From Caldisericota bacterium (GTDB lineage: Bacteria > Caldisericota > Caldisericia > UBA6126 > JAGPKI01): DNA of 64,000 nt. The stretch covers positions 76 through 64,075 of the forward strand of contig JBPOJC010000005.1 of NCBI GenBank assembly GCA_052034135.1, read 5' to 3'. The translations under genes and the position numbers were made by a program. Positions within the stretch are counted from its first letter, which is position 1. Every line of letters starts with the position of its first letter. Below, piece by piece: positions 4,223 to 64,000 of the stretch. The notes below the pieces were generated by a model. The model ran no database searches and was not told the origin of the DNA. It worked only from the letters and a program-made list of their open reading frames with translations.

Positions 4223-4951
4223 ATGTTAAAGATTGAAAATTTATCAGTGAGTGTAGAAGATAAACTAATTCTTAAAAATGTTAACTTGGAAATTGGTGAG
4301 GGTGAAACTCATATTCTATTAGGTCCTAACGGTGGGGGGAAAACAACTTTACTTCTTACAATTATGGGACTTCCTAAATATAAGGTTTTAAACGGAAGAA
4401 TAATTTTTAGAGGTACTGATATAACAAATATGTCAATTGATAATCGGTCTAAATTAGGAATTGGATTAATGTTTCAGAAACCTCCGAGAGTAACAGGAGT
4501 TAAACTTTTACAAATTTGCGAATTGGCAAGCAATAAAAAATTAAAACCTCTTGAAATAGAAAAATTCTCAGAAAAACTTAATCTTAGAGAACATCTAAAT
4601 AGAGATATAAATGATGGTTTTTCAGGTGGGGAAATGAAACGATCTGAGCTTTTGCAGATATTATGTCAGAATCCAAGTCTTGTACTTCTTGATGAACCAG
4701 AATCTGGTGTTGACCTTGATAATCTTTCTATTGTTGGCGAATTAATAAATGAGCTTCTTGAAAAGGATAAAGTAAAAGGGAGAATACGCTCTGGGCTTAT
4801 TGTAACACATCTGGGGTATATACTTAACTTTGTCAATTCAGATAAGGGACACGTACTAATGGATGGTGAAATTATCTGTAGTGGAAATCCAAGAGACCTA
4901 TTTGAAGAAATTAAAAAGCATGGGTTTGAAAGGTGTAAAGAATGCAACTAA
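4223..4951 (+). CDS. sufC: Fe-S cluster assembly ATPase SufC
   Basis: Walker A GPNGGGKTT, the FSGGEMKRSELLQIL signature, Walker B LVLLDEPESGVD, and a downstream sufB. Confidence 0.9.
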   Translation: MLKIENLSVSVEDKLILKNVNLEIGEGETHILLGPNGGGKTTLLLTIMGLPKYKVLNGRIIFRGTDITNMSIDNRSKLGIGLMFQKPPRVTGVKLLQICELASNKKLKPLEIEKFSEKLNLREHLNRDINDGFSGGEMKRSELLQILCQNPSLVLLDEPESGVDLDNLSIVGELINELLEKDKVKGRIRSGLIVTHLGYILNFVNSDKGHVLMDGEIICSGNPRDLFEEIKKHGFERCKECN

Positions 4952-6189
4952 AAGAGATTATGGAAGAATTTAAAGAAAAGGCAAAAAGAGCAGAAAATAA
5001 AGCTGCCCTATATGGAGAAGATATAGATTTAAAAAAATATTCATTACCCCCAGAAGAAGAAAATATTTCTTCTCTATCCTCTCTTCCCGATGATCTACAG
5101 GAAATTGCAAAATCATCAGGAATAGATATTGGGGAAAAAGAAAGATCCGGAAGTTACATCCAGCTTGATCAATCTGCAATTTATAGCAGAGTTAATGAAA
5201 TTTACAAAGGACAACTCGAAATAACAAGTATAAATGATGCGCTTTTAAAGTATCCTGAGATTGCTAATGAATATCTATGGAAAACTATTCCCGTTGATCA
5301 GGATAAATATACAGCATTTTCTGAGCTTTATTCAAAGAACGGTTACTTTATAAGGGTATTTAAAGGGCAACATGTTGAAATACCTATTCAGGCGTGTCTT
5401 TTACTTAAAGAAAATTCTTCTGTTCAGAATGTTCACAATATAATAATAATGGAAGAGGGATCAAGTGCACAGATAATTACTGGATGTGCTGTTCACCCAA
5501 AAGTTGATGATGGTATTCACATAGGCATATCTGAATTTTTTATTAAAGATGGAGCAATGCTTACTTTTACAATGATACATAATTGGAGTGAAAATTTTCA
5601 TGTAAGACCAAGATCAGGAGCAATTATAGAAGATAATGGCAAGTTTATAAATAATTATGTACTATTAAAACCCGTTAAAAGCGTCCAAATGTTCCCAGTT
5701 GCCACACTTAAGGGTAATGATTCTCATGCAAAGTTTAATTCATTGATGTATGGACTTAAAAATTCAAAGATTGATGTTGGATCAAAGATAGTTCTTTCTG
5801 GAAACAATTCTTCTGGGGAAGCTATTTCAAGAGCAATAGCTAAGGATTCATCTATTATTAACGCAAGAGGAACTCTCGTTTCAGTTAATAATAGTACACG
5901 AGCTCATCTTGACTGCAGGGGAATACTTCTTTCGGAGAATGCAAAAATTTATGCAGTGCCAGAGCTTTTAGCAGATGGTACACCAAAAGCTGATCTTTCA
6001 CATGAAGCAGCAATAGGACCAATTTCAGATGAAGTGGTTGAATACCTTATGAGCAGAGGTATATCTAAAGATGATGCAGTATCACTTATAACCTCTGGTT
6101 TTATGGATGTAAAAATATTAGGCTTACCAGAACAACTTGAGAATTATATAAATGAACTGGTTAAACTAACAGCAAAAGAGTCTTTATAA
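4942..6189 (+). CDS. sufB: Fe-S cluster assembly scaffold SufB/SufD family protein
   Basis: C-terminal ADLSHEAAIGPISDEVVEYLMSRGISKDDAVSLITSGF matches the conserved SufB tail. It overlaps sufC by 10 nt. Confidence 0.85.
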   Translation: MQLKEIMEEFKEKAKRAENKAALYGEDIDLKKYSLPPEEENISSLSSLPDDLQEIAKSSGIDIGEKERSGSYIQLDQSAIYSRVNEIYKGQLEITSINDALLKYPEIANEYLWKTIPVDQDKYTAFSELYSKNGYFIRVFKGQHVEIPIQACLLLKENSSVQNVHNIIIMEEGSSAQIITGCAVHPKVDDGIHIGISEFFIKDGAMLTFTMIHNWSENFHVRPRSGAIIEDNGKFINNYVLLKPVKSVQMFPVATLKGNDSHAKFNSLMYGLKNSKIDVGSKIVLSGNNSSGEAISRAIAKDSSIINARGTLVSVNNSTRAHLDCRGILLSENAKIYAVPELLADGTPKADLSHEAAIGPISDEVVEYLMSRGISKDDAVSLITSGFMDVKILGLPEQLENYINELVKLTAKESL

Positions 6190-6888
6190 AAGAGAATTTT
6201 ATTATATTGGTTTACTAATAGTTAGTCTTTTTCGTTAATCAAGAAATGTTACTCTATCAACTTATTATCTAAATGAAGAAGTATTCTTCCATAATAATTT
6301 CAGATTATACAAGCTAAAAAGTAGCGAGAATTAAATTTAGAGTTCATAGTGCCAGCTATAACCTTATTATACAATTTCTGAAATATTACTTATTTGAATT
6401 GATGATGGAATCAATAAGGATATTAATCCTTTCAACGTCAAGATATTTATGAAAATACTTTAATTTTTAAAATGCTTCAGTAAGCGATAGAGGCTCTTTC
6501 TAAAGATAATGTAATGTGTTTGGTAATTATATTAAGAAATTTGGTACAAGCATAAAGCTAAAAAAGCTGAAAAGTGTGACCTTTTTCTAACGCCATCAGG
6601 AATTGTCACTTATATTGATTACTAATTAAGCAGAAAAACATTTAATGTAGCGCAGACACATTCCTGTCTGTTCCTTTTAATGCAACTGGCTTAATGCTAT
6701 TAAACGCAAATAAGGAGATCCTTCAGTCGCTGAGATGATGCTTCTTCAGGAAGACGGTGAGTTGTTAGAGATCATTCGGTCGTTGTGAAGACACTTCCTC
6801 TATTTTTTTCTTTCTGAGCGTAAGCGAAGAATCTCCTCATTTAATCTTTTCGTTATTCTTGTAGCGGTGGACATACCTTTATGCCACT

Positions 6889-6920
6889 GTCATCCCCGAA
6901 ATCTTTTATCGGGGATCCAG
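6889..6920 (+). repeat. Hairpin repeat copy 1 (stem ATCCCCGA / TCGGGGAT)
   Basis: gtcatccccgaaatcttttatcggggatccag contains a perfect 8-bp inverted repeat. Confidence 0.9.
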
Positions 6921-6930
6921 TAGAGAAGCC

Positions 6931-6972
6931 GTCATCCCCGAATGTATTTATCGTGGATCCAGACCAATTTTT
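6931..6972 (+). repeat. Hairpin repeat copy 2 (one stem mismatch) with AGACCAATTTTT tail
   Basis: gtcatccccgaatgtatttatcgtggatccagaccaattttt. Confidence 0.85.
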
Positions 6973-7092
6973 AACATTTTTTGTATTTAGGAGTGACAAA
7001 ATTGTCATTTTTACCTCACTTATATATATGGAGAGTTTATTTTTACACATTTTGCATGAGGTAGAAATATGGAACCATCCTTGGTATCCTGG

Positions 7093-7112
7093 ATTCCCGC
7101 TTCCGCGGGAAT
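7093..7112. repeat. Perfect 8-bp stem hairpin ATTCCCGC-TTCC-GCGGGAAT
   Basis: Read directly from the sequence. It abuts the 42-bp tandem repeat. Confidence 0.9.
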
Positions 7113-7200
7113 GACAAGAAGAAAATGCGGGAATGACAAGAAAATCATAGGAATGACAAGAAGAAAATGCGGGAATGACAAGAAAATCATAGGAATGACA
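7109..7200. repeat. 42-bp tandem repeat, about 2.2 copies (GAATGACAAGAAGAAAATGCGG + GAATGACAAGAAAATCATAG)
   Basis: Exact repetition at 7109-7150 and 7151-7192, plus a partial third copy. It is mirrored as the repeated peptide CHSYDFLVIPAFSS in the spurious minus-strand ORF. Confidence 0.9.
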
Positions 7201-7280
7201 CATTAGGAGACCCTTCGTCGCTTTTAGAGATGCTCCTCAGGGTGATGGGGGGGGGCAGCCATCCCTTGCTCCTCCCGTCC

Positions 7281-7319
7281 TTCCGAAGTGCGGTATTTTC
7301 GCACAAGTCCTTAGGAATC
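7281..7319 (+). repeat. 39-nt repeat, copy 1 (contains hairpin GTGCG-GTATTTT-CGCAC)
   Basis: ttccgaagtgcggtattttcgcacaagtccttaggaatc is identical to 7569..7607. Confidence 0.95.
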
Positions 7320-7399
7320 TCAACACCCCCACACCGTCATTCTGAGCGAAGCGAAGAATCTCCTCTTTGTCTTTTGTCATCCTCGAATTACATACAATT

Positions 7400-7441
7400 G
7401 TCATCCCCGAACTCATTTATCGGGGATCCAGACCAATTTTT
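7400..7441 (+). repeat. Hairpin repeat copy 3 with AGACCAATTTTT tail
   Basis: gtcatccccgaactcatttatcggggatccagaccaattttt. The termini are near-identical to the copy at 6931. Confidence 0.9.
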
Positions 7442-7568
7442 CTTATATTACAAACATTCTTGTCTGTTTATTGTAATTTCCGAATATATCTGTAAGGATA
7501 CAGAGAAGCGGAGACCCTTACGAAGCTAAATACAGATATGCCTCCTCAGGATGACTCCCAACAATACA

Positions 7569-7607
7569 TTCCGAAGTGCGGTATTTTCGCACAAGTCCTT
7601 AGGAATC
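7569..7607 (+). repeat. 39-nt repeat, copy 2
   Basis: Identical 39-mer located 288 bp downstream of copy 1. Confidence 0.95.
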
Positions 7608-8370
7608 GTCTTATTTTTTTTCTGTTAATCAGAAGTCGCATCTTTTAGTGGTTGCAACAAGGTATCTATATATCTATTTTCGATATGGAGTAAAAGAAAT
7701 CTTACACACTTAACTAATTCTTTATAGAATTTTAGGATTTTCTGATGAAGATAACAAAAACATTAGAGGAAAGCAAAAGAAGCAAAACCTTTTAATTAAA
7801 TAAAGTAATTATTAAAGGCATTATAATGTCTGTAAAGCATCCTTTATAGACATACATAAATTATTATAATTTTCGAGATAAATTAAGGAGTTATTTTAGA
7901 ATAAGGCTCATAGAAAGCCTCTACTCTTTCACCTTTCCTTGTTAGAAAAGAGAGCATTCTTGTAATAATATAAGCTCTAATCATTGCTTTAATATCAGAT
8001 ATAATAAAATCCTTCTTTCTTATATTTTATTAAGCAAAGAAATAACTCTTAATTGTTATCTTTCTATTTGAGACTCATTACTATTTCTATTTTTTATCTC
8101 ATATGGTTTAATTATTTTATGAGTTTATAAAATTGAATATGTTTTTGATAAATAAATTAAAGCCTGTTGATATTCTTTTGATTAGCAGGAATATTTATGT
8201 TTAGGCAAAGGTTTATTCTTGCATATTTGAAGCTTTTATTGAAATCTTCATTCTTATATATCTTTTGATTGTTTTGAGTAAAAAATTATGAAGTAACTCA
8301 TAGAAATATGGGAGGTTTTTATAAATTATTTTTTATATTGTTAAAATTTTAATATAGGAGGAATAAGTTT

Positions 8371-8604
8371 ATGAAGATAGGAAAAACAATCAAGTTTTTT
8401 GGCATTCTTTATTTTATTAGTGGTATTATATTAGGTATTGCCTTTGGTCTTTTTCTATCAATAAATATAAAATTATCGTATAGCCCTTTATTTTTTGTTG
8501 TTTTCTGTAGTTTCTTAATTGCATCATCATTTCTCAATGCTATTAATGGTATTTTTTTTGGAAATGAAATACAGAAATTCTTAAATTCATTAAAAAATGA
8601 TTGA
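8371..8604 (+). CDS. Small hypothetical membrane protein (2 predicted TM helices)
   Basis: A strong SD (ATAGGAGGAATAAGTTT) precedes the ATG and the sequence is hydrophobic. It is isolated within an AT-rich non-coding stretch. Confidence 0.45.
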   Translation: MKIGKTIKFFGILYFISGIILGIAFGLFLSINIKLSYSPLFFVVFCSFLIASSFLNAINGIFFGNEIQKFLNSLKND

Positions 8605-9248
8605 AGCTATCAAATTTGATGATAGTGGTTCCTGATAATCCTACCAACAAAGTTCCAGGAACTCTAATAATTTCTTCAGAAGGCATAAAATTGTAACTGA
8701 AAAACTTCTTTTAACTGGATTCTCCTTTATAATCCTTTACGTATTCCTTACTATGTTACTTTCTGAATATAAATTTGCTATTAAAACTAAACCAATCAAT
8801 ATCACTAATTAATGGCAGTTAGCTATAAATGTTAAAAATTTCAGTAATTTGGCAAAACTGATTTAAATGAAAGAGCTATTGCAAAAGTCAAGCCATAAGC
8901 CAATTAATTCTTTTTAGTAAAACCATCCGTAAATTATGCCTAAATTTATAAATACTTTATATTAATAAGGTTTAATCTTAACGTTGGACTTTAGCCATTC
9001 AGAATTTTATAGTATATAGATAAAAAACAAAATTTGTTTATTCCGACGAATAGGTGTTAATCCTTAAGTTTTTTTCAGAGCAGTAAGTTTTTATGAAAAA
9101 CTTTTTAGAGGGTCAGATTTTGACACTCAAAAGAATATAATTTATAAAATCTTTTAGAAAAAAGGAGGTATTTTAAATCTCTGAGAAAGTAAAGATTTAC
9201 AAATCGATTTATCCTGTAGAAGAGGTATCAGACAAAGAAAGAGAAGAG

Positions 9249-9473
9249 ATGGTTGACTATTTAATAAAGAAAATTCCACGAGATATATTCGAGAAAGTTT
9301 ATGAAGCAATCAAGAAGGATGGAGAACATTGGTATATAGCGCATCATTTCGGCTTTGGAATGAGTGTAAGAAACCTTTTGAGGGGGAAATTTGACTGGAG
9401 AGATGATACTACGCTTGATAATAGCTGGCAAATTCTTGTTAAAGAAGCAGTAAATAAACTTTTTGAATCGTAA
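9249..9473 (+). CDS. Hypothetical protein (74 aa)
   Basis: ORF only. The same frame is open back to 9177, where a GGAGG (9164-9168) sits 8 nt upstream of a non-canonical ATC codon, so the true start and gene integrity are uncertain. Confidence 0.3.
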   Translation: MVDYLIKKIPRDIFEKVYEAIKKDGEHWYIAHHFGFGMSVRNLLRGKFDWRDDTTLDNSWQILVKEAVNKLFES

Positions 9474-9554
9474 ATGCATAAACTAATCGAAAATGTGAGA
9501 ATTGATTTGACAAAATATATCTTAGAGTTACAACATTATACGGAGATGTAAAAT

Positions 9555-9761
9555 ATGGCTGAAAGTAACAAGTATGAGAACAGTAAATTTGTAGAGATAT
9601 TTTGGCATCAGAAATACGATAGAATAGAATTGGATGAAAAGATGCCCATCGAAAAGCTAAATCTTCCATTTCAGACCATTGAGACAATAAACAAGCCCAC
9701 AATAAAAGACCTTGAAGTCAGACTCCACCTAAAGAAAAACTCGATAGCAGATTATAAATAA
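9555..9761 (+). pseudogene. Probable N-terminal remnant of a site-specific (N6/N4) DNA methyltransferase
   Basis: FWHQKYDRIELDE..LNLPFQTIETINKP resembles the conserved N-terminus (W.GKYD...LPFQ.vEtI.E) that I recall from adenine-specific methylases of R-M/defence loci. The ORF stops after 68 aa without any catalytic domain. Confidence 0.4.
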
Positions 9762-9791
9762 AATTACTTATAGTTAAAATTACTTATAGTT
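9760..9791 (+). repeat. Perfect 16-bp tandem direct repeat (AAAATTACTTATAGTT x2) upstream of the cas operon
   Basis: Read directly from the sequence, 89 bp upstream of the cmr1 ATG. A possible operator. Confidence 0.9.
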
Positions 9792-9792
9792 A

Positions 9793-9819
9793 TTGAAGTG
9801 CATAAGAGAGTGAAATAAT
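9793..9819 (+). promoter_or_regulatory. Candidate sigma70-type promoter of the cas/abiE operon
   Basis: TTGAAG (9793-9798), 15-nt spacer, then TGaAATAAT extended -10-like motif (9811-9819). It lies immediately after the 16-bp direct repeats. The spacing is suboptimal. Confidence 0.25.
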
Positions 9820-9879
9820 GGTAAATGTGGTGGATTTATTTGGTAAGGACGCAAAAAAAGTTTTGAAGGTGAAAATAAA

Positions 9880-11001
9880 ATGAAAGAATTTGCAGTAAAA
9901 ATTAAACTTTTAACTCCAATTTGGACGGGGGACGCAAATAGACACAATACTACTTTAAGAGAGACTGGTATAATTGGAAGTTTGAGATGGTGGTATGAAG
10001 CATTAATCAGGGGGCTTGGTGGAACCGCTTGTGACCCAACAAATGAGAGTCTCCGATGTAAATTAGATCATGATAAATTTTATAAGGCAATAAAGAACGG
10101 AAATTCAATTAAAGATGCATTAGATGCGCAAATATGCCAGGTTTGTCAGCTTTTTGGCTGTACAGGTTGGGCAAGAAAATTTAGATTGGAAATAGTAGGC
10201 AACGGTATTACTCCTATTCAAGGAGTATGGATAGGAACAAGAGAAAAGAGAGGGAATAAATATTTAAAGCGAAATATATCAGGCTTGATGTCTAATGATT
10301 TAATAACTTTGAAATTTATCCCATTAAGAGATATTTCTCAACAAGAATGGAGTTTATTGAATATAAGTTTGGGAATAATAGAAAATTATGGAGCTTTAGG
10401 GGCACACATCTCTCAAGGAAATGGTGTAATTGAAGTTGTTGAAAATAATTTGCCTCGTAGTAATAAGCTTTGGACATTTGATTTAAAGAAAAATAAAGAT
10501 AATAGCGAGTTACCTAATTTGAATAATTTTTTCTTTTACAAGTTTCATATCAAATTTAAAGAAAGCTTAGTAAACCTAATTAATAACAATGTTTTTTGGA
10601 CTCATACTTTAGATCATAGTGAATTTAAAAATGACCTAAACTCATGGCGAGTACTTTGGACTAAATATCATTTTCTTCCAATATCATTTCATATAAGGGA
10701 TACTATAAGGTGTTTAGAGAGTGATAGAAATAAAAGGCATGAAATATTTGGCATAGGCGGGGGAAATGCTAAAGGCTCAAAAGTGTTTGCCTCTCATGGA
10801 TATAAAATTGATGAAAAAACCATAGAAGTTCGAGTTTGTGGATATAATGTGGACCAATGTATTAAAAATAGGATAAAGAATGAAATAGGCAGTATGCTGG
10901 AAGAAAAGTTATTTTCGTCAGATGAAAATAGGAAAAACTTAGAAGAATGTATTTTGACAGAAGAAAAAGAGGGTAGCGAATTACTGGAGGGGTTAAAATG
11001 A
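9880..11001 (+). CDS. cmr1: Type III RAMP protein, Cmr1-like (Cas7 group)
   Basis: LTPIWTGD..TLRETGIIGSLRWWYEALIRG parallels the Cmr1 motif (SIKGAMRWWFRAL in P. furiosus Cmr1). CQVCQLFG and the C-terminal glycine loop FGIGGGNAKG are also present. Confidence 0.75.
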   Translation: MKEFAVKIKLLTPIWTGDANRHNTTLRETGIIGSLRWWYEALIRGLGGTACDPTNESLRCKLDHDKFYKAIKNGNSIKDALDAQICQVCQLFGCTGWARKFRLEIVGNGITPIQGVWIGTREKRGNKYLKRNISGLMSNDLITLKFIPLRDISQQEWSLLNISLGIIENYGALGAHISQGNGVIEVVENNLPRSNKLWTFDLKKNKDNSELPNLNNFFFYKFHIKFKESLVNLINNNVFWTHTLDHSEFKNDLNSWRVLWTKYHFLPISFHIRDTIRCLESDRNKRHEIFGIGGGNAKGSKVFASHGYKIDEKTIEVRVCGYNVDQCIKNRIKNEIGSMLEEKLFSSDENRKNLEECILTEEKEGSELLEGLK

Positions 11002-11843
11002 TGCATGACTATTACCTTTCAAAGGCGGAAGAATATGCGGATATTGAGGATATTGAATTAGCTAAAAATAAGAAAGATATTCAGGATAAGTTGAAAAAAG
11101 ATGTAGATGATGAACTTATCCATACCTTTTACCCTTCAAAAGATGATCTCAAAAATCTTCCTCAAAACTCCACTCTTTTAAAAATCTCCTTCACTCTAAA
11201 AAAGTCTTATACAAGCAAAGATGAAGGGGAATTTCATATTTACAATAGTAAAGATAAAAGGGATAAAATCTTTGAAAATCCGATTGTTAGGGATAAATTC
11301 ACAGGGCTTCCTGCAGTAAAGCCTTCAACATGGAAAGGACACTTGCGTTTTGCTGCAAATAAAGCTGAATGGGAAAATGAGCAAGAAAAAAAGGAAATTA
11401 TCAGAAGGCTTTTTGGTTCAGAATCAGAGGAAAAAGAAAATCCATTAAAGGGGAGGCTTTATTTTTTCCCTACATTTTTCAGAGAAGACACAGATATGGA
11501 TGTAATTACCCCCTTGAAAAGAGCCACCAGAATTCCAGCAAGAGGCCCAATAAGCTTAGAAGTTATGAAACCAGGCAAGAATGCTGATTTTTATCTATTA
11601 TACGTTCCCTATCCAAAGGGAGCGGATTTCAAGGAGGAAGATGTCAATAAAGATTTAAGATTTTTAGCTGAGGCTTTAAAACTGATGTTTTATACTTATG
11701 GCTTTTCTGCAAAAAAGACAAGCGGATTTGGGGTAATTGAGAATTTAGAAGCAGGGAATATTGATGTTTATCCTGAAGATAAAAAAGAAATTTTCTCAAT
11801 ACTATACACTAAAGTAAGCGATAGTGTTAACCATGGTGTATAA
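10998..11843 (+). CDS. cmr6: Type III RAMP protein, Cmr6-like (Cas7 group)
   Basis: STWKGHLRFAA, RRLFGSE..KGRLYFFPTFF and the glycine loop KTSGFGVIE. ATGA overlap with cmr1. Confidence 0.7.
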   Translation: MMHDYYLSKAEEYADIEDIELAKNKKDIQDKLKKDVDDELIHTFYPSKDDLKNLPQNSTLLKISFTLKKSYTSKDEGEFHIYNSKDKRDKIFENPIVRDKFTGLPAVKPSTWKGHLRFAANKAEWENEQEKKEIIRRLFGSESEEKENPLKGRLYFFPTFFREDTDMDVITPLKRATRIPARGPISLEVMKPGKNADFYLLYVPYPKGADFKEEDVNKDLRFLAEALKLMFYTYGFSAKKTSGFGVIENLEAGNIDVYPEDKKEIFSILYTKVSDSVNHGV

Positions 11844-11845
11844 AA

Positions 11846-12604
11846 ATGAGAATTAATTTAATAGACCAATTAGCATCTAAAGGAAATACTTTTACCTTTG
11901 AGGAAGCGCAAAAATTAATAGGGTCTGACTATTCTGTGACAAAAGTAATTATTTCTCGTCTTGAGAAAAAGGGATGGATTGAAAGAATTGAGAAGGGTAA
12001 ATATATGATTATTCCTCTGGGAGCTGAGAAAGGTAAGTATACTCTTAATGAGTTTGTTATTGGTTCTATGCTTATTAAGCCTTATGCAATTGCTTACTGG
12101 AGTGCTCTTCATTTTTATGGCCTCACTGAACAAATACCAAATACGGTATTTATTCAAACAACTGCAAGAAAGAAAAATCAAAATATTAAAGTTTTTGGCA
12201 TTAATTATAAAATTGTGAGAATAAAAGAGGCAAAATTCTTTGGTATTCGTAGGGAATGGATAGAAGAAACGCAGATAAATATCACAGATAAAGAAAAAAC
12301 AATAGTGGATTGCTTAGATAAACCTCAGTACTGTGGTGGAATAATAGAAGTAGCAAAAGCATTAAAAAATGGAAGCTTTGATAAGGATAGATTGGAAGTT
12401 TATGCAAATAAAATTGGAAATTCAGGTGTTATTAGGAGACTTGGTTTTCTGTGTGATTTTCTTGGAATCAAGATAAATTTACCTCAAATTAAGACAAAAA
12501 ATTATCTTTATCTTGATCCAACAATGCCACTGGAAGGGCAAAGAAATGCTAAGTGGCGATTAATTATAAATCTTGATGAGAAGATTCTGGGGGCACTTGA
12601 GTGA
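11846..12604 (+). CDS. abiEi: AbiEi-family antitoxin / transcriptional regulator (type IV TA, COG5340-like)
   Basis: N-terminal wHTH (FTFEEAQKLIGSDYSVTKVIISRLEKKGWIERIEKGKYMIIP). AYWSALHFYGLTEQIP and a C-terminal domain are typical of AbiEi. There is a 2-nt gap after cmr6 and a GTGA overlap with the next ORF. Confidence 0.75.
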   Translation: MRINLIDQLASKGNTFTFEEAQKLIGSDYSVTKVIISRLEKKGWIERIEKGKYMIIPLGAEKGKYTLNEFVIGSMLIKPYAIAYWSALHFYGLTEQIPNTVFIQTTARKKNQNIKVFGINYKIVRIKEAKFFGIRREWIEETQINITDKEKTIVDCLDKPQYCGGIIEVAKALKNGSFDKDRLEVYANKIGNSGVIRRLGFLCDFLGIKINLPQIKTKNYLYLDPTMPLEGQRNAKWRLIINLDEKILGALE

Positions 12605-13365
12605 TTTCAAAAAATGAAATACCACAGAAAGCAAGGGAAAAAGAAGTACCTGAATCTACTATTGAGAGAGACTATGTTCAGAACTGGTTACTTATGGCAT
12701 TATCATCTCTTCCTCTTGTACTAAAAGGAGGAACAGGTATAAGAAAGGTGTATGTTGAAGATTATAGATTTTCTGATGATTTAGATTTTACATTACTTAA
12801 TAGGATTGATGAAGATGAATTAAGAGAAATAATAGAAAAATCAGTGGAAAAAGCAAGAGAAGAAAGTGGAATAAATTTTAGTAGGGATATAGGGTTTTGT
12901 AAAAATGATAATGGTTTTGAAGCAGATGTCTATTTTCAGCTTATGCAAACGGGAAGCAATAGAACATCAGTAAAGATAGATATAACAAACTGTGAGAATG
13001 AGAGGATACTTTTACCAGTAGATATAAAGAAGATAATTCATCCATATTCTGATGATTTAAATGCTGAAGTAAAAGTATATGCTCTTGAAGAGATGATTAC
13101 AGAAAAGATAAGGAGTCTTTTTCAGAGAACAAGACCGAGAGATCTATATGATGTATGGTATATGTGGGATAAGGTGGATAGAAGAAAAATTTTTAAAATT
13201 CTTCCTGAAAAATTTAAATCAAAAAATGTTGAGATGGATATAAAAGATTTTGAGCAAAGGAAAAATGACTTTGAAGGTGCTTGGAAAAATTCTCTTGGTC
13301 ATCAACTTAAAGAGTTACCTGAATTTGAAAATGTGTTTTTGACCGTGTTTGAGGAGGTAAAAAAG
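12601..13365 (+). other. abiEii: Domain: AbiEii-type Pol-beta nucleotidyltransferase (toxin) module
   Basis: The GGTG..RFSDDLDF motif lies at 12724-12792 and the module has the full length expected of a stand-alone AbiEii (about 255 aa). Confidence 0.75.
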
Positions 13366-16284
13366 ATGCTTATTGATATAATTAGTAATAATAAAGAAAA
13401 TATCTTAATTGGTGAAATTGGGGCTTTGCTTCATGATATTGGAAAATGCCACCCAGATTTTATAAGGGTACAGTCTTTAGAGCATGAAACTAATTTTGTT
13501 CACGAAAATATTGATAAATTTTTGAAACCTGAGCTTATTGATACCCTTAAAAAGGTAAAAATAAAATTCGATAATGAAGAAAAATCAGTCTATGATCTTA
13601 TTCGTTATCACCATGATGCTAAGGGAACTCTTTTAAAATATTTAGAAAAATGTGATCGCTTAGATTCAGCTGATGATAAAGGAGTTGTGAGAAAAAAACA
13701 GTCAAAAGATGATACTATTATATGTTCACCATTTGGTTTTTCTAAAGAAAAGATTGATCTTCAGTGTTTGCAAAAAAGACTAAACGATTTAGAAAGTAAT
13801 TTGATAGGATTATTCCAAAATTATGTATCTGGTAGTTTAGATATAGTCTGTTTTAGAAAATGTTTGATGAATAACCTAAACACAACATTTTCCTGTGCTC
13901 TTGGAGAGACAAGGATCCCAGCAAATGATGTAACCCTCTGGGATCATTCACATTCTACGGCATCGCTCTTTAAGTCTGCATTGTGTGCGATGGTCCTTGG
14001 TGAAAAACCTGATAAAGACAAATTGCAATGGAGGATCTTTGGATTTTGCTGGGATGGTATTGGTTTTATAAATAAAGGTAAGGAAGTTGCTGACATTCTT
14101 CAGAGAAAAAAAATTATTGATGAGATGAAGAGAAAATTAAAAGATAAATTTGAAGAAGAGATCCCAATTGGTAATGTAATTTATGAGGATAATAATGGGA
14201 TTTATTTTACATTTCCAGCATTGAATAACAATTCAGAAGCACTTGCAAAAGAATGTGCAAAGATAGGACTTGATATTATTAGAAAAGATAGTAATGATGA
14301 GATATGGCCATTTTTCACATTGAGTAAGCCACATAGAACCCTTACAATCCTTACTGAAGAATTAAAATTTGCTTCTAAGGAAAGAGCTATACCTAAAATG
14401 ACACCAACTTTATTTATTGAAGGAAATGGAGAGATAACGTTAGATAATCCTGAAATAGATACTCCAAAAGATGGTTGGGATATTTGTCCTATCTGTAGAT
14501 TAAGAGCAAAGCTTGAGGATGATGATAGATGTGATGTTTGTAAAGAAAGAAAAAAAGGGAGATTAGATAGTTGGCTTAGTAGTAGAGAGAATACAATCTG
14601 GATAGATGAAGTTGCGGATGATAATAATCGCATTGCATTACTTACCCTAAGCTTTGACCTTGATAAATGGCTTGATGGTACGATGATTGGAACCATTTTT
14701 TCTCAAACTCTTGAGGACTGGAAAAATAGCAAAGATGCGATTAAGTTTTTCAGTAATAAACAAAACGAACAAAAGCTAAAAAGTAAAGGCATAAATATTA
14801 ATGATGCTCCTATTAATTTATCAAAAAATTGTTTGAAAATTATTACAGATGAGGATCCCTTAAAAAAGGATCCCTCAAAAGACCCTGCATTTAAAAGTGA
14901 ACTGATAAATACATTTTACGAGGATGTTAAATCTACTCAAAATGAAAAAGATGAGAATTATATTGAAAAATTTATTGATAATCTTAAAGTACGTGTAGGT
15001 CCTGAACCATTTAATTCATCTAATCTGCAAAAAGTAATTTTCACTCAAAATCCATCTCCTGCTCGTTTGTATAGAATTTGGAAAGAGACAGATGAATTTT
15101 TTGGTTTAGTTACTAAAGATATAAAAGGAGGAATCTATTCTCGTAAACGGAAAAGGCTACATTTCTCAGCAGATAATAACGCTTTAAAAGTTAAGATAGA
15201 TCTTGAGAGTATAGAAAATACTCCTTTAGAAAATACTCCTTTAATAATAAAAATAAATGGTTTAAAGCCTGAAAGTATTTTAGTCATTCATACATCAGGT
15301 GGTGAATTTTATACCATTGAATCACTTGAAAAATTTAAATACGGAGATAAATCAGGCCCTGATGTCGTTAAAGACGCTTTAAGTAAAGGGTTATATTGGA
15401 TTTCAGAGGAAGATAAACCTGATATTAATCTACTAAAGAATGGTCAAAATATAAAGATTAATGGCATTCTTTCAGAAGAAGATTATTATCCCATTATTGA
15501 AATTACAAAGTCTCCATTGTCAATGCGACTAATTGTACCAGCATCTGACTCTATATCAATTTTGAAGTCAATAGTAAAGCTATATAATCAAAGATTTGAA
15601 AAGGTTTTAGGGAAATTACCTTTTAATATTGGTTTACTCGTTTCAAAGAGGAAGTTTCCACTCTATGTTTTATTAGATACTGGAGAAAGATTATTTCATG
15701 CTAAAGAGTTTAAGAAGCCTGAAATGATGGATGCATGGTGGGATATAAATGATCTTAGGAATGACGAATTTTACAGTTTTTATCCAGTAACAAAATTTGA
15801 AGATCAAAAATACAATCTTGATGATTTAGTTCCATTATCTAAAGGCAAAATCTATTCTTTATATCCTGGATATTTTGACTTTGACTTAATCCTTGGTACA
15901 CAAGATAGATACAATATTACCTACAATGAGAAAAGAAGAGCTAATAACGATTACATGCTATTTTCTAAAAGACCTTGTTATTTTTATCAATTTCCACAGA
16001 TGATTGACTTATGGGAAATTCTTAATAATAATCTCTCAAGCTCTCAAATTAACTTTATTGAAGAATCATTAACAAATAAACTGCGAGAATGGCGCAATGT
16101 TAATGAACCTATAAAAAATGATGTATTCAGAAAGTTTGTAGAGGCAACAATAAAAGATGCATTTAGCAGTAACTGGGATAAATTAGAAAAGGAGACCAAA
16201 GATTTTATTTTAAACTCTGCTTACAATGGGTTTTTACTTGATACCATAGTTTTATTTAATCATACTATAAAGAAGGGAGAATAA
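12601..16284 (+). CDS. cas10: AbiEii/DUF1814 nucleotidyltransferase fused in frame to a Cas10 large subunit (HD domain present, cyclase GGDD motif absent)
   Basis: aa 1-255 carry IERDYVQNWLL..LKGGTGIRKVYVEDYRFSDDLDF (the AbiEii NTase signature). aa 256-1227 carry HD (LLHDIGK, RYHHD), WDGIGFI, the Zn finger CPICR..CDVCK, and a palm-2 region MRLIVPASDSISILKSIVKLYNQRF..KLPFNIGLLVSKRKFPLY. That palm-2 region aligns with IFAVGAWDD..KLTLSAGIGIFSDKYPV of Csm1, but TKSPLS stands in place of YSGGDD. No stop codon occurs between the two parts. Confidence 0.8.
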   Translation: MISKNEIPQKAREKEVPESTIERDYVQNWLLMALSSLPLVLKGGTGIRKVYVEDYRFSDDLDFTLLNRIDEDELREIIEKSVEKAREESGINFSRDIGFCKNDNGFEADVYFQLMQTGSNRTSVKIDITNCENERILLPVDIKKIIHPYSDDLNAEVKVYALEEMITEKIRSLFQRTRPRDLYDVWYMWDKVDRRKIFKILPEKFKSKNVEMDIKDFEQRKNDFEGAWKNSLGHQLKELPEFENVFLTVFEEVKKMLIDIISNNKENILIGEIGALLHDIGKCHPDFIRVQSLEHETNFVHENIDKFLKPELIDTLKKVKIKFDNEEKSVYDLIRYHHDAKGTLLKYLEKCDRLDSADDKGVVRKKQSKDDTIICSPFGFSKEKIDLQCLQKRLNDLESNLIGLFQNYVSGSLDIVCFRKCLMNNLNTTFSCALGETRIPANDVTLWDHSHSTASLFKSALCAMVLGEKPDKDKLQWRIFGFCWDGIGFINKGKEVADILQRKKIIDEMKRKLKDKFEEEIPIGNVIYEDNNGIYFTFPALNNNSEALAKECAKIGLDIIRKDSNDEIWPFFTLSKPHRTLTILTEELKFASKERAIPKMTPTLFIEGNGEITLDNPEIDTPKDGWDICPICRLRAKLEDDDRCDVCKERKKGRLDSWLSSRENTIWIDEVADDNNRIALLTLSFDLDKWLDGTMIGTIFSQTLEDWKNSKDAIKFFSNKQNEQKLKSKGININDAPINLSKNCLKIITDEDPLKKDPSKDPAFKSELINTFYEDVKSTQNEKDENYIEKFIDNLKVRVGPEPFNSSNLQKVIFTQNPSPARLYRIWKETDEFFGLVTKDIKGGIYSRKRKRLHFSADNNALKVKIDLESIENTPLENTPLIIKINGLKPESILVIHTSGGEFYTIESLEKFKYGDKSGPDVVKDALSKGLYWISEEDKPDINLLKNGQNIKINGILSEEDYYPIIEITKSPLSMRLIVPASDSISILKSIVKLYNQRFEKVLGKLPFNIGLLVSKRKFPLYVLLDTGERLFHAKEFKKPEMMDAWWDINDLRNDEFYSFYPVTKFEDQKYNLDDLVPLSKGKIYSLYPGYFDFDLILGTQDRYNITYNEKRRANNDYMLFSKRPCYFYQFPQMIDLWEILNNNLSSSQINFIEESLTNKLREWRNVNEPIKNDVFRKFVEATIKDAFSSNWDKLEKETKDFILNSAYNGFLLDTIVLFNHTIKKGE
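13351..13368 (+). promoter_or_regulatory. Internal Shine-Dalgarno (GAGGAGG) plus in-frame ATG exactly at the NTase/Cas10 boundary
   Basis: gaggaggtaaaaaagATG has an 8-nt spacer. This is consistent with an ancestral or still-used independent cas10 start. Confidence 0.45.
13366..16284 (+). other. cas10: Domain: Cas10 (HD + palm1 + Zn finger + degenerate palm2 + C-terminal helical domain)
   Basis: The HD dyad lies at 13432-13437, the Zn finger at 14485-14541, and the expected GGDD position at about 15502-15522. Confidence 0.8.
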
Positions 16285-16289
16285 TTAAA

Positions 16290-17195
16290 ATGGATGTACC
16301 TAAAAAATATTTTGCAATAACTCTTGATCCTGTACATATCGGGGCTGGCGGATATAGACTTGGTTTTGTAGATAATACTATAGTAAGGGAACCAGCTACT
16401 GATATACCTAAAATTCCTGGGACATCACTGGCAGGTGTAATAAGAGCGTTTGCAGAGTTAGTTAAAACAGAGGATGATAAGATAGCTGATACAGAGAAGA
16501 AATTCAAGAATATAAATATTGAAACAGCATTCGGTGATGAAAATAAACAGGGAATGTTAAGGTTCTATGATGGACAGATAATCTTTTTCCCAGTATCTTC
16601 AATTGAGGGGACAGTCTGGATAACTACAAAAGAATTACTTGAATACTGGCTTGGAGACATGAAGGATGAACAAGGCAAGAAAATTACAATTCCATATGAA
16701 GTGCAAGATAAAGCATATGCAGTAAAAGGAGTTAATCCTGAAGCATTAAAGCTTGGATTAAATCTTGGATGGCTATTGCTGGAGATTCAGAATATTACTG
16801 GAGGGAAAGAAGTTGTACTGCCATCAGAATTAGAGAATTTCTTAAAAAGGATTGTAGTCGTTTCAGATAAGCTATTTTCTCATCTGGTAAATGACAATTT
16901 AGAAGTGAGAACATCTGTAAAAATCGATCCAAAGACAGGGACAGCATCTGAAGGAGCATTGTTTACATACGAAGCCATACCAAGAGGAACTATATTAGGA
17001 TTTGAAATGGTTATAGATACAAGAAGGGAAAATGTAGATGATATTGAAACATTAATTAAAGCCACGTTTCCTTATTTAAAGCTTCTTGGTGTAGGTGGAC
17101 TGGGAACACGAGGTTTTGGAAGGATTAATATGTTTGGAATAAATGAAAATAATGCTCAATCCTCAAAAGGAGGAAAAGTAAATGATAAATCTTGA
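16290..17195 (+). CDS. cmr4: Type III backbone RAMP, Cmr4-like (Cas7)
   Basis: HIGAGGYRLGFVDNTIVREPATDIPKIPGTSLAGVIR parallels P. furiosus Cmr4 GSGTELGVVDQPIQRE..GQSLKGVLR, and the catalytic Asp is retained at 16371-16373. AFGDE..GMLRFYDGQIIFFPVSSIEGTVWITT and the glycine loop GVGGLGTRGFG are also present. Confidence 0.8.
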   Translation: MDVPKKYFAITLDPVHIGAGGYRLGFVDNTIVREPATDIPKIPGTSLAGVIRAFAELVKTEDDKIADTEKKFKNINIETAFGDENKQGMLRFYDGQIIFFPVSSIEGTVWITTKELLEYWLGDMKDEQGKKITIPYEVQDKAYAVKGVNPEALKLGLNLGWLLLEIQNITGGKEVVLPSELENFLKRIVVVSDKLFSHLVNDNLEVRTSVKIDPKTGTASEGALFTYEAIPRGTILGFEMVIDTRRENVDDIETLIKATFPYLKLLGVGGLGTRGFGRINMFGINENNAQSSKGGKVNDKS

Positions 17196-17577
17196 TTATT
17201 TATGCACAAAAATTGGTCAGGAAATAGGAGAAATGAAAAAGGAAAGAAATGAATCTACTCTTAGTACTCTTAGGAAGGCTCTTGGTATTTTACAAGAAGA
17301 TGGAGTTTATGCAATGTTTCTTTGGCTTGAAAAAGAAAATAGTGGGATAAGAAAAAAATTAACTACCGAGCTAAATGGTAGTGATATAGTTAAAAAATAT
17401 CTTTTACAAAATTCAGAGGGTTTTCGTGACGATTTTAAAGAATTTTGTAAAGACCTTAGCGAGCTTTCTCAGGATATTGATAAACTATTCTTTCTTAAAA
17501 AGATACTTGAACGTTCATTAACTTATGCTTTGTATCACGCAAAGATAAAAGGTGTCGAAAATGTGGCAGAGACTTGA
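17182..17577 (+). CDS. cmr5: Type III small subunit, Cmr5-like (Cas11)
   Basis: A 131-aa all-helical protein sitting between cmr4 and cmr3. ILQEDGVYAMFLWLEKE resembles the Cmr5 core helix. A strong SD AAGGAGG precedes it. Confidence 0.6.
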   Translation: MINLDYLCTKIGQEIGEMKKERNESTLSTLRKALGILQEDGVYAMFLWLEKENSGIRKKLTTELNGSDIVKKYLLQNSEGFRDDFKEFCKDLSELSQDIDKLFFLKKILERSLTYALYHAKIKGVENVAET

Positions 17578-18499
17578 TATTGTTTTTGTTTTAAAGAGTC
17601 CATTACATATTGGTTATCTCCCATTTAGAGGTTTGGTAATATCTCCTACAAGATATTATGTCCCTGGTAGGAATTTCTGGGGTGCGATAACAAAAAGATT
17701 GAAAGAAAACTTGTATGAAAATCCTGTAGAGGAATATAAAAAAATAGGTGAACAGATTAAAGAAAACTTTAGATTTTCATATTTTTATTTATACGATGGA
17801 GAAACTATTTTTATCCCTAAATATAACGAGGAGGGATTAACTTTTGGAGATAAAAAGCAAATAGATAAATTTCAATTTGAATATAGATTTATAGGTAGTA
17901 GAGTTTTAACTGCTATAAATAGTGATTCAGGGACGGCAAAAGACGAAAGTCTTCATGAAATAGAGTTTATAAAAGATAAGTTTAGTGATGATGGAGACCG
18001 TATTAAAGATACAAAAATCATTGGTTGTATCTGGGTAAAAGAAAATTCTAAGATTCAGGATTACGAAGTTAAAATTGAAAATAATGGGATTTTTGTAAAT
18101 GAATTTAACCTTATTGAAGAATTAACTCTTGGTGGAGAGCAAGGGTATGGTTTTGGTTTAGTGGGGGTAGAGGCTATCTTAAACAAGAAATTATTTCCAA
18201 TAGACAGTTTAGACAATGAAGACGTTAAAATAAGTTTAGAAAAAGATAAACCGATTCTATCCCATCTTAAATATGATAAGAAAATTCCTTTTAAAGGTGA
18301 CTTAGAACTCTTAACTGGTAGAGGTTATTTTGATGTTGAGAGAGAAAACAGTTTAGAAAGAGGATATAAAGAAAATCCTGGTAATGTGCTTTCTAATATA
18401 AATTATTACTTCTCTCCTGGTACAATTATTAATTTTGAAAATGATAGAAAATATAGTATTGGCTGGAATGGAATTTTATTAATGAATGATAATCAATGA
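17552..18499 (+). CDS. cmr3: Type III RAMP, Cmr3-like (Cas5)
   Basis: LKSPLHIGY..YYVPGRNFWGAITKRL and the glycine loop LTLGGEQGYGFGLV. It is the last gene of the operon. The ATG at 17561 (SD AAGGTG) may be the true start. Confidence 0.6.
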   Translation: MSKMWQRLDIVFVLKSPLHIGYLPFRGLVISPTRYYVPGRNFWGAITKRLKENLYENPVEEYKKIGEQIKENFRFSYFYLYDGETIFIPKYNEEGLTFGDKKQIDKFQFEYRFIGSRVLTAINSDSGTAKDESLHEIEFIKDKFSDDGDRIKDTKIIGCIWVKENSKIQDYEVKIENNGIFVNEFNLIEELTLGGEQGYGFGLVGVEAILNKKLFPIDSLDNEDVKISLEKDKPILSHLKYDKKIPFKGDLELLTGRGYFDVERENSLERGYKENPGNVLSNINYYFSPGTIINFENDRKYSIGWNGILLMNDNQ

Positions 18500-38858: not shown

Positions 38859-38999
38859 ATATGATAACCATTATAATAATTTTTTAACATTATGACCATT
38901 ATAATAATTTTTGACTTATGAGAAAGTTTATGATTTGTATCGAGCAAAATCTTAAATATGATATACTTCTGTGGATTAAACTATGGGAGTCATGAAGGT

Positions 39000-39230
39000 A
39001 ACTACGAATGAATATCATCCCTTCATTCCGAAAGTGTGTATCAACAAGCTTGAACTGAGGAGATTCTTCGCTACTGGGAATAGTGCTCATTAGGATGACG
39101 GCGATGGTGTGATAACTTTCGTCGTTAAAATTAAACTCCTCAGAATCACGGAAGGTTGAATCCCCAATGCCACTTACGGAATACATCTCCTAAGGATTAC
39201 TGTGTGATAAGAGTACATTCGTTACATACA
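39000..39230. repeat. Cluster of degenerate copies of the 6.7-7.6 kb repeat modules
   Basis: 39057-39100 is the reverse complement of the CCGTCAT(T/C)CT..GCGAAGAATCTCCTC module. 39111-39151 (gataactttcgtcgtt..ctcctcagaatcacgg) matches the GGAGACCCTTCGTCGC..CTCCTCAGGGTGA module. 39023-39065 resembles the 39-nt CATTCCGAAGTG.. module. Confidence 0.75.
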
Positions 39231-39496
39231 TTTCTTAAGGCAACAAAAAAGAGGTATAAAAGAGGAGAGGTTCCATCGGGTGGAAAATTGTAAGCAATTT
39301 AAAATAAATAAAAATAATTGAAATAAAAAATTTCAGTATCTAAAGAATCTGATAAAATGGAAGTATTAGCAGCTCATGTTTAGTTTTTTGATGAAGCAAA
39401 GATAATCAAAGATAATAATTTTATTAAGAAAATTAAACAAAGTAACATATTTTAAATTGTTTTTATAAGGGATATGGCATATATTAATTAGTTATT

Positions 39497-39569
39497 GTGC
39501 CCGTAGCTTAATGGAAAAAGCATCGGCCTCCGGAGCCGAGGAGTGGAGGTTCAATTCCTCTCGGGCACG
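39497..39569 (+). tRNA. tRNA-Arg (anticodon CCG)
   Basis: Hand-folded cloverleaf. The acceptor stem is GTGCCCG/CGGGCAC, the D arm GCTT..AAGC, the anticodon stem TCGGC/GCCGA with loop CTCCGGA, and the T arm GGAGG-TTCAATT-CCTCT. The discriminator is G and no CCA is encoded. Confidence 0.9.
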
Positions 39570-39579
39570 GAGAAAATTT

Positions 39580-53237: not shown

Positions 53238-53450
53238 AGGAGACCCTTCGTCGCTTTCAGATACGCTCCTCAGGGTGACTGGTGGCTTGAGATCCTTCGG
53301 TCGTTGAGAAGACACTCCCTCAGGAAGACGGGAGGGAGTGTGAGATCCCTTCGTCGCTTTCAGATATGCTCCTCAGGGTGACGAGGGTGGTGAGCGGAGA
53401 CCCTTACGAAGTAAAATACGTTCCTTCAGGGTAACGGAGGTATTCCAATC
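53238..53450. repeat. Four head-to-tail 51-55 bp units of the GAGA(C/T)CCTT..CAGGGTGAC repeat family
   Basis: The units start at about 53238, 53289, 53342 and 53397. Units 1 and 3 are almost identical (gagacccttcgtcgctttcagatacgctcctcagggtgac versus gagatcccttcgtcgctttcagatatgctcctcagggtgac). Confidence 0.85.
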
Positions 53451-63562: not shown

Positions 63563-63635
63563 TGGGCCCTGAAGGACTCGAACCTCCGACTTGCTGGTTA
63601 TGAGCCAGCCGCTCTACCGACTGAGCTAAGGGCCC
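63563..63635 (-). tRNA. tRNA with CAT anticodon (elongator Met, or Ile2 if lysidine-modified)
   Basis: The reverse complement GGGCCCTTAGCTCAGTCGGTAGAGCGGCTGGCTCATAACCAGCAAGTCGGAGGTTCGAGTCCTTCAGGGCCCA folds as a cloverleaf. G1-C72 is paired, so it is not an initiator. Confidence 0.9.
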
Positions 63636-63889: not shown

Positions 63890-64000
63890 AATGTATGAAA
63901 AAATATGGATCCCCGATAAAAGATTTCGGGGATGACAGTATGGTGGAGTTCGAGGATGACATTTTGGTGCCTTTGAATGACCCCTCTCTCTGTCACCCTG
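63890..64000. repeat. Repeat cluster running off the window end
   Basis: 63907-63936 (ggatccccgataaaagatttcggggatgac) is the reverse complement of the 6889/7400 hairpin module. It is followed by GAGGATGAC and TGTCACCCTG module fragments. Confidence 0.8.

Follow-up and report, generated by a model that had tools for sequence, protein, structure and literature searches.

A probable NIME-like array of hairpin repeats related to Ssn targets, located where synteny breaks in a Caldisericota genome

The stretch of DNA analysed here (the window) comprises 64,000 nucleotides of a Caldisericota bacterium (assembly GCA_052034135.1, contig JBPOJC010000005.1). Members of the SufD protein cluster bear names that assign the source to Caldisericia. 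Between sufBD (4942-6189) and a RAMP/AbiE operon starting at 9880 lies a non-coding gap, and the region 6650-7610 within it is occupied by short repeats. A preliminary description of this region had listed at least four shuffled hairpin-repeat modules. All the listed modules were found in place, far above chance and reproduced in four assemblies, and they were indeed shuffled, multi-copy and intergenic. We consider, with a probability of about 0.7, that the region is an array resembling the intergenic mosaic elements of Neisseria (NIMEs) and the bacterial interspersed mosaic elements (BIMEs), built of hairpin repeats related to the targets of Ssn nucleases. Its directional units, mostly 25-45 nt long, occur in both orientations together with half-units and spacers.

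The units of the array lie between 6714 and 7607 and are of five types, A to E. Copies of module A, GTCATCCCCGAA-loop-TTATCGGGGATCCAG, begin at 6889, 6931 and 7400. The first A unit (6888-6920, + strand) reads TGTC-ATCCCCGA...TCGGGGAT-CCAG with an 8-bp stem and a folding z of -4.9, the second (6930-6972, +) has one stem mismatch at 6954, and the third occupies 7399-7441 (+). The tail AGACCAATTTTT follows the second and third of these units (6961-6972 and 7430-7441), and a half A unit, GTCATCCTCGAA, is present at 7376-7387 (+). The B unit, TGTCATTCCCGCGGAAGCGGGAATCCAG (7089-7116, - strand, z -3.75), has the dRS3 core ATTCCC-N8-GGGAAT. Its palindrome, ATTCCCGC-TTCC-GCGGGAAT at 7093-7112, leads into a 42-bp tandem repeat (2.2 copies, 100% identical) at 7108-7200 (-), which is made of half-units (GGAATGACA, five times) and lies downstream of the full B unit. 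The same layout of a full unit with downstream half-units was found beside the nuclease gene ssn in N. gonorrhoeae, in Planktothrix and in a Caldisericia locus, L466. An RS-like spacer module (6980-7033) separates A from B.

The remaining types are interspersed with these. Copy 1 of C (7277-7321, +) reads GTCC-TTCC-GAA-GTGCG-loop-CGCAC-...-GGAAT-CTC with an inner GTGCG/CGCAC hairpin, and it shares an exact 39-mer with copy 2 (7568-7607, +), 7281-7319 being identical to 7569-7607. A variant C copy, GAGATTCC...GGAATGAC, lies past the window end. Units with the pattern GGAGAYCCTT...CTCAGGRTGA (D) start at 6714, 7206 and 7510, and a further copy, at 6768, is truncated. The first (6714-6757, -) appears on the + strand as GGAGATCCTTCA...CTTCAGGAAGACGG, its GTC...C direction being on the - strand; the truncated copy (6768-6800, -), GAGATCATTCGGTCGTTGTGAAGACACTTCCTC, is without the AGGAAGAC end and has a full counterpart at 53288; the copy at 7206-7246 (-), GGAGACCCTTCG...CTCAGGGTGAT, ends in GAT; and the last (7510-7555, -) is GGAGACCCTTACG...CCTCAGGATGAC. 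The E unit CGTCATTCTGAGCGAAGCGAAGAATCTCCTC at 7335-7365 (+) has a degenerate copy, TTCTTTCTGAGCGTAAGCGAAGAATCTCCTC, at 6808-6838 (+). For searches, the E/D type was written as the pattern GAGAYYCTTC...YTCAGRRTGAC (T1) and the B/A type as GGATYCCC...GGGRATGACA (T2); the E unit contains the 27-nt form of T1 that recurs across phyla.

Compared with one another, all modules read as variants of one directional unit, consisting of 5'-GTC, a palindrome AT...AT and then C. The frame is GTC-ATCCCCGA...TCGGGGAT-C in A, GTC-ATTCCCGC-GGAA-GCGGGAAT-C in B, GTC(C)-TTCC-GAA-GTGCG...CGCAC-...-GGAAT-C in C, GTC-ACCCT-GA-...-GA-AGGGT-C in D and GTC-ATTCT-GA-GCGAAGC-GA-AGAAT-C in E. A, C and E are on the + strand of the array, and B, D and the tandem half-units are on the - strand. 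The modules counted in the preliminary description are real, but what it took for four or more distinct kinds are variants of a single unit. The chance expectation of the modules is essentially zero; the D-unit pattern, for example, matched six times in the window and 0.00 times in 100 shuffles. Folding as single-stranded DNA (ssDNA) by nearest-neighbour rules predicted strong hairpins for A (6889 and 7400) and B, with z from -2.9 to -4.9. The idea that all modules form stable hairpins was rejected by the folding of C, D and E, and in the thermodynamic sense the predicted hairpins are A and B only. The T1 core GA-GC-NNA-GC-GA may be read as tandem G.A pairs around a GNA-type mini-hairpin, an ssDNA motif that nearest-neighbour folding undervalues.

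Because four independent metagenome contigs reproduce the array, with 0-2 differences each, it is not an assembly artefact. Position 6954 is polymorphic between samples (T/G), and G, found in ENA contig L008, restores the perfect stem of the second A unit. Uniqueness of the modules to one site, which would have spoken against a repeat family, was not found: three more clusters are present in the window and matches occur across phyla. The second cluster (~38990-39150), upstream of tRNA-Arg, comprises a frame-type hairpin (38992-39026) and D-like units at 39059-39100 and 39104-39150. The third (53239-53437, -), located between a Zincin_1 gene and mscL, is a tandem series of four D units. In the fourth (63905-64000, -), beside tRNA-Met, one A unit and one half A unit are accompanied by the beginning of a D unit, and in a longer ENA contig this cluster runs ~240 nt past the window end (to ~64240) with D, C-like and T1 units. 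There are four clusters in the 64 kb, and all types, A to E, appear to be multi-copy in the genome. Contig ends coincide with clusters: seven of ten independent contigs carrying an identical SufBD protein end exactly at 6838, within the degenerate E unit, and Logan contigs have their two ends precisely at the 53.3-kb and 63.9-kb clusters.

Repeats with the core of B have been described before. dRS3 (ATTCCC-N8-GGGAAT) punctuates the NIMEs, which in the 2007 description had not been seen outside Neisseria (PMC1797815). Chenal et al. (2025) extended dRS3 to the 28-nt Neisseria Transformation Sequence (NTS) and characterised SsnA, a 94-aa single-domain GIY-YIG protein that binds NTS and cuts a few nucleotides upstream, on ssDNA only and on one strand only (PMC11893778). 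The C after the palindrome is key to binding and the three bases before it are key to cutting, the identity and length of the loop are not essential for cleavage, and the RNA form is not bound (PMC11893778). In N. meningitidis the system reduces the integration of NTS-bearing transforming DNA (PMC11893778). Ssn-related motifs (SRM) flank ssnA homologues across phyla in an insertion sequence (IS)-like NTS-ssnA-NTS layout, the published examples being mostly from Pseudomonadati (PMC11893778). The preliminary description called the function of the repeats unknown, which is now too simple, as their family has been published as the dRS3/NTS/SRM target of the Ssn ssDNA nuclease.

Judged by sequence, B belongs to the dRS3/NTS type, A belongs to the SRM type but has a longer loop, and C, D and E have the same frame. 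At two positions, the first C and the loop M, B deviates from the NTS consensus CGTCATTCCCGCGMAVGCGGGAATCYRG. Gonococcal copies such as tcctggATTCCCACTTTCGCGGGAATGACaatt share core and flanks with the window's tcctggATTCCCGCTTCCGCGGGAATGACaaga, and gonococcal arrays likewise alternate orientation. The strict dRS3 form was found at 7093-7112 (ATTCCCGCTTCCGCGGGAAT) and in no other unit of the array, A lying outside it with ATCCCC and a longer loop. The structure described for SRM, an inverted-repeat hairpin of 20-50 nt with GTC upstream and C after it, was present in A and B, both with 8-bp stems; C, D and E keep the GTC...C frame but fall outside the published SRM pattern.

Pattern scans showed that the units are widespread, as had been supposed. 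Each of three scans returned at least 120 matches: T1 in viral contigs, T2 in viral contigs, and the exact A type in JGI metagenomes. The G+C of contigs holding units ranged from 0.31 to 0.70. No unit was found in 66 unrelated genome loci (1.18 Mb) that served as a negative control, and a lineage-specific D pattern had no match in a scan of a genome contig collection; a SufBD scan of that collection found no close relative, the best identity being 64%. BLAST of B matched chromosome-size records of N. gonorrhoeae (at least 40 places each) and records of Photobacterium, Azospirillum, Cupriavidus, Ralstonia, Legionella and Ca. Manganitrophus. Labelled records with T1 matches came from Granulicella, Planktothrix, Calothrix, Oscillatoria, Hymenobacter and Phocaeicola. 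The repeats had been regarded as fillers of uncultivated anaerobes, a view that does not hold given their presence in Neisseria, Photobacterium, Azospirillum, cyanobacteria, Acidobacteriota and Bacteroidota. The suspicion that they are mis-called as tiny proteins was substantiated by two open reading frames (ORFs) that had been called on repeats, one in L002 (77 aa) and one in L455 (118 aa); neither these nor the ORFs inside the cluster had a Pfam match. A full-text literature search for the repeat strings returned just unrelated primer sequences.

The stems covary. At the two outer-stem positions that the T1 search pattern leaves free, 104 of 108 unique units were Watson-Crick paired, compared to 50.7 expected if the positions were independent. 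For the free inner stem pairs of T2, Watson-Crick pairing was seen in 22-27 of 26-27 units, and the pairs were of several types. The longer units of T1 have an inner hairpin that is G+C-rich and variable. In viral-contig loci, for example L085, L104, L107, L224, L259, L292 and L308, the units of one type within one contig all point the same way (for example, 6/6). Relative to genes, units were sense in some contigs and antisense in others, and pooled they showed no consistent bias, in counts for which ORF calling was crude in high-GC contigs. The uniform direction within contigs suggests a strand rule tied to a process other than transcription, for example replication or the packaged strand. 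The gene association of T1 units in viral contigs was with phage structural genes only.

We also examined which genes accompany the units. Unbiased clustering of the ORFs within 150 nt of units at 238 loci gave a small GIY-YIG family as the top recurrent neighbour. The fetched loci contained 11 small GIY-YIG ORFs, every one of which has T2 units within ~100 nt, mostly on both sides, and their proteins match PF01541 only. Plasmid p1 of Planktothrix agardhii (L483, NZ_LR882964.1, 14685-22714) has T1 arrays and tandem half-units on both sides of an Ssn-like gene, which sits in a defence island between DISARM drmA and an MmeI type IIL enzyme. T1-like units also flank an Ssn-like gene on a Spirosoma plasmid. 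No GIY-YIG gene adjoins the solitary T1 copies found on plasmids of Granulicella, Calothrix, Oscillatoria and Hymenobacter.

A counterpart of the window array was found on JGI contig Ga0255347_1000526 (G+C 0.34). The GIY-YIG protein of this contig occurs in many near-identical versions, of which one carries a Caldisericia annotation. Locus L466 (23131-43418 of this contig) is a 20-kb Caldisericia island with roughly 60 Ssn-type hairpins; related loci are L465-L474 and L486-L487. The hairpins separate small toxin-antitoxin cassettes (HicAB, ParE/RHH, PemK and PIN/DUF433). The island carries two to three copies of a 95-aa GIY-YIG gene (ssn), at least two of them in L466. At the protein level it shares 51% identity with the gonococcal 94-aa protein, itself flanked by NTS units and a half-unit. 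Among the island hairpins are the A type and GTCATTCCCGCGAAAGCGGGAATC, which matches the NTS consensus core (positions 2-25). Two composites of the window, A plus tail (43 nt) and A plus half A (56 nt), are shared with L466 at 95-97%, the 43-nt one at 95%, and the spacer 6980-7033 is repeated there at 17141-17194 and 16399-16447 with 87-88% identity. In two island strains a cassette block has been replaced, and in both the right-hand breakpoint is at the GTC edge of a hairpin. The island strains differ by whole cassette blocks, in a layout that resembles an integron cassette array without attC or IntI. What links an ssn gene to the source genome of the window is limited to co-occurrence in the same run series (SRR297829xx) and to the shared composite repeats. 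The nuclease partner has been shown for the unit types and for the lineage, and its presence in the source genome is inferred.

In the window the array lies at a synteny break, because relatives at 88-89% nucleotide identity are collinear with the window by blastn up to position 6200 and then have a different gene order without units. Beyond the break they carry an intact glnA (441 aa), four tRNA genes and lonC, and zero units. The window continues past 6200 with a decayed glnA, the array, 2.3 kb of AT-rich DNA and the RAMP/AbiE island. The glnA remnant (6188-6625, +), detected by tblastn with the intact GlnA of relative L480, lies immediately left of the array and joins residues ~7-39 to ~326-441 with several in-frame stops. 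A terminator-like hairpin with a T-rich tail (6652-6681, +) follows the remnant on its 3' side and is outside the repeat family. The suggestion of a REP-like or recombination-associated role gains from this position of the array.

The array had also been described as the left border of a defence region. This is right in a loose sense, but ~2.3 kb of AT-rich, mostly non-coding DNA precedes the first RAMP gene and no matching cluster is present at the other side. That stretch (7610-9880; G+C 0.24 over 8001-9000) contains just short ORFs (77, 74 and 68 aa) without a Pfam match, and it did not align with the post-glnA tRNA region of the relatives. The type III-like operon that follows (9880-18499) encodes three RAMP proteins. 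It also contains an AbiEi-like gene (11846-12604) and, at 12601-16284, a gene for a 1227-aa protein with an N-terminal AbiEii nucleotidyltransferase domain and an HD domain. Pfam searches of the flanking genes agreed with the earlier statement that no transposase is nearby. Two of the four repeat clusters directly adjoin tRNA genes, tRNA-Arg CCG (39496-39570) and tRNA-Met (63563-63635); tRNA genes are classical integration hot spots.

Several observations weigh against assigning the array to the Ssn system. No GIY-YIG ORF was found in the 64-kb window by motif, by tblastn or with a hidden Markov model built from the matches. A small GIY-YIG gene was present in 0 of 117 T1 viral loci, and the link between T1 and Ssn consists of two annotated examples, the Planktothrix and Spirosoma plasmids. 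No unit matches the NTS consensus CGTCATTCCCGCGMAVGCGGGAATCYRG with one mismatch or fewer; the best match is B (7089-7116), with two. The published SRM pattern, HGTCWYN(0-2)YYVSBRHN(0-5)WNVSBRGN(0-2)RNCYNB, taken as written, had no match in the window. When the loop was relaxed from 5 to 8 and one loop letter was freed, five matches were obtained (four of A and one of B), compared to 0.07 in shuffles, and the failure of the pattern is due to the loop terms only. The mismatched A unit (6931) and C, D and E showed no significant stability when folded as ssDNA. Altering the palindrome sequence with the structure kept abolishes SsnA activity (PMC11893778), and for this reason the cutting of variant units is uncertain.

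Taking the biochemistry of Neisseria SsnA (PMC11893778) and the relatives as a guide, the following mechanism is inferred for the source organism. When a strand becomes single during replication, repair or the entry of incoming DNA, a unit would fold as a hairpin. A nuclease of the Ssn family (cd10448) encoded elsewhere in the genome would bind it, with the C after the palindrome being most important, and would cut a few nucleotides upstream of the unit, where the GTC side would matter most. The outcome would be local trimming of ssDNA and altered recombination, along with spread or turnover of the repeats. Arrays would thereby become hot spots of rearrangement and cassette exchange.

This reading can be compared with known systems. 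As in NTS/SRM-SsnA, the unit is a directional GTC-palindrome-C, B has the dRS3 core with near-identical flanks, the copies are multiple, intergenic and clustered with half-units beside full units, and the Caldisericia relatives carry small GIY-YIG genes flanked by units. The differences are the phylum, the loop of A, which exceeds the published pattern, the lack of ssn in the window, and the form of C, D and E (T1), in which the outer stem is short, the internal loops are GA/GA and the inner stem is variable or decayed. The array resembles NIMEs (Parkhill 2000; Bentley 2007; PMC1797815) in its 20-bp inverted repeats of the ATTCCC-N8-GGGAAT type in both orientations, its short reusable spacers, its G+C-richer units in AT-richer spacers and its position beside variable genes at a locus that differs between strains and relatives. 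It departs from them in mixing several unit types (A to E). The definition of NIMEs comes from Neisseria, to which they were described as specific, and the match is one of a shared way of working, not of taxon membership. Like integron attC sites, the units are ssDNA hairpins with conserved outer boxes and variable terminal structure, and the L466 cassettes separated by hairpins, with strains differing by whole cassettes, recall integron arrays. However, the units start with GTCAT and end with ATC(C) instead of having the core RYYYAAC/GTTRRRY, they occur in both orientations and in multiples between genes, and no integrase (IntI) gene was seen among the flanking genes scanned.

Mobilisation by a transposase would produce a similar architecture. 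Repetitive extragenic palindromes (REPs) and BIMEs of Enterobacteria and Pseudomonas, and REPINs, are likewise extragenic palindromes with conserved flanks, spread between genes in mosaic clusters and in arrays of both orientations, and they are associated with a presumed ssDNA enzyme whose gene is flanked by repeats, the RAYT (an IS200/IS605-type Y1 transposase), for which the hairpins would be recognition or cleavage sites. The uniform direction of units within many contigs, whatever the gene strand, is what movement via ssDNA would give. The recurrent neighbour gene is nevertheless GIY-YIG rather than HUH/Y1, and the units have GTC/C as their conserved flank, where REPs have a GTAG-type tetranucleotide. 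A tblastn search of the window and 4.8 Mb of loci with an IS200 TnpA query, a search of limited sensitivity, found no Y1 transposase. We therefore regard a RAYT origin as improbable. An action of the units as RNA, whether as structured RNAs, terminators or elements of mRNA stability or processing, seems to us just as improbable. The T1 core GA-GCGAAGC-GA speaks against it, as it reads as a mini-hairpin between tandem G.A pairs, a form typical of ssDNA. In favour of RNA, A and B are stable hairpins, and some of the intergenic units, such as those upstream of mscL, are probably situated in untranslated regions. REP elements of E. coli do affect mRNA stability (PMC3184786), but SsnA does not bind the RNA form of its target (PMC11893778). 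The structured-RNA suggestion of the preliminary description found no support: Rfam gave no family for the window or for five viral loci, whether with gathering or with permissive thresholds, both orientations occur within one cluster, units lack terminator T-tails, and they are sense in some contigs and antisense in others. The lone Rfam signal, the Neisseria sRNA IR_84 at 6823-6979 (- strand), was below threshold (18.4 bits, E 7.8) and may reflect dRS3-type hairpins inside that Neisseria transcript.

Slightly better placed, though still unlikely, is the notion of an inert graveyard, in which the units are decayed remains, either of a past expansion of repeats or of illegitimate recombination where a deletion took place, and have no present activity. 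Units at 6768, 6808, 7206 (with its GAT end) and 7376 are truncated or degenerate, the array lies beside the decayed glnA and 2.3 kb of AT-rich non-coding DNA, and no nuclease gene is present in the 64-kb window. Against this stand the perfect 8-bp stems of A and B copies, the one mismatch being polymorphic between samples, the exact 39-nt and 42-nt duplications, which indicate recent events, and the presence of four clusters within 64 kb. Some units may be decaying copies, which is compatible with Ssn-related hairpins. The least credible of the alternatives is that the array is a CRISPR array or leader of the type III-like cas operon nearby, in degenerate form. The array does lie ~2.3 kb upstream of the RAMP genes, and B has a shape like type I-E repeats (a CCCGC stem then AT). 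Nonetheless, repeat searches and TRF found no regular repeat-spacer period, a tandem-repeat scan of the window showed no CRISPR array, and units also occur at three loci far from cas genes and, in many phyla, beside unrelated genes. The lack of periodicity and the dispersed copies together lead us to exclude a CRISPR remnant.

Collectively, these results place the array in a known kind of element in a new lineage, with one modest extension, namely that the T1 repeats, which are very common, seem to fall within the same system. They indicate that the GAGATTCTTCG...CTCAGAATGACA repeats so frequent in cyanobacteria, Bacteroidota and Acidobacteriota are part of it, and they place dRS3/NTS-type units and NIME-like arrays, once thought to be Neisseria-specific, in Caldisericota. 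They also give a testable identity to the 'filler' repeats scattered through metagenome-assembled genomes, at which short-read assemblies break and on which small proteins are spuriously called. Much more speculatively, Ssn-type arrays might be the boundaries of exchangeable cassettes (toxin-antitoxin, defence) in Caldisericia and perhaps more widely, acting in an integron-like manner via an ssDNA hairpin nuclease and not a tyrosine recombinase. The window array could then be the scar or entry point where the type III CRISPR/AbiE island replaced the glnA and tRNA region, and the D/E (T1) units, GTC-ATYCT-GA-[mini-hairpin]-GA-AGRAT-C, could be a second, cross-phylum class of Ssn substrate beyond the published motif. 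If the cassette-boundary behaviour of the Caldisericia island is general, such arrays would help to explain where defence and toxin-antitoxin genes enter genomes.

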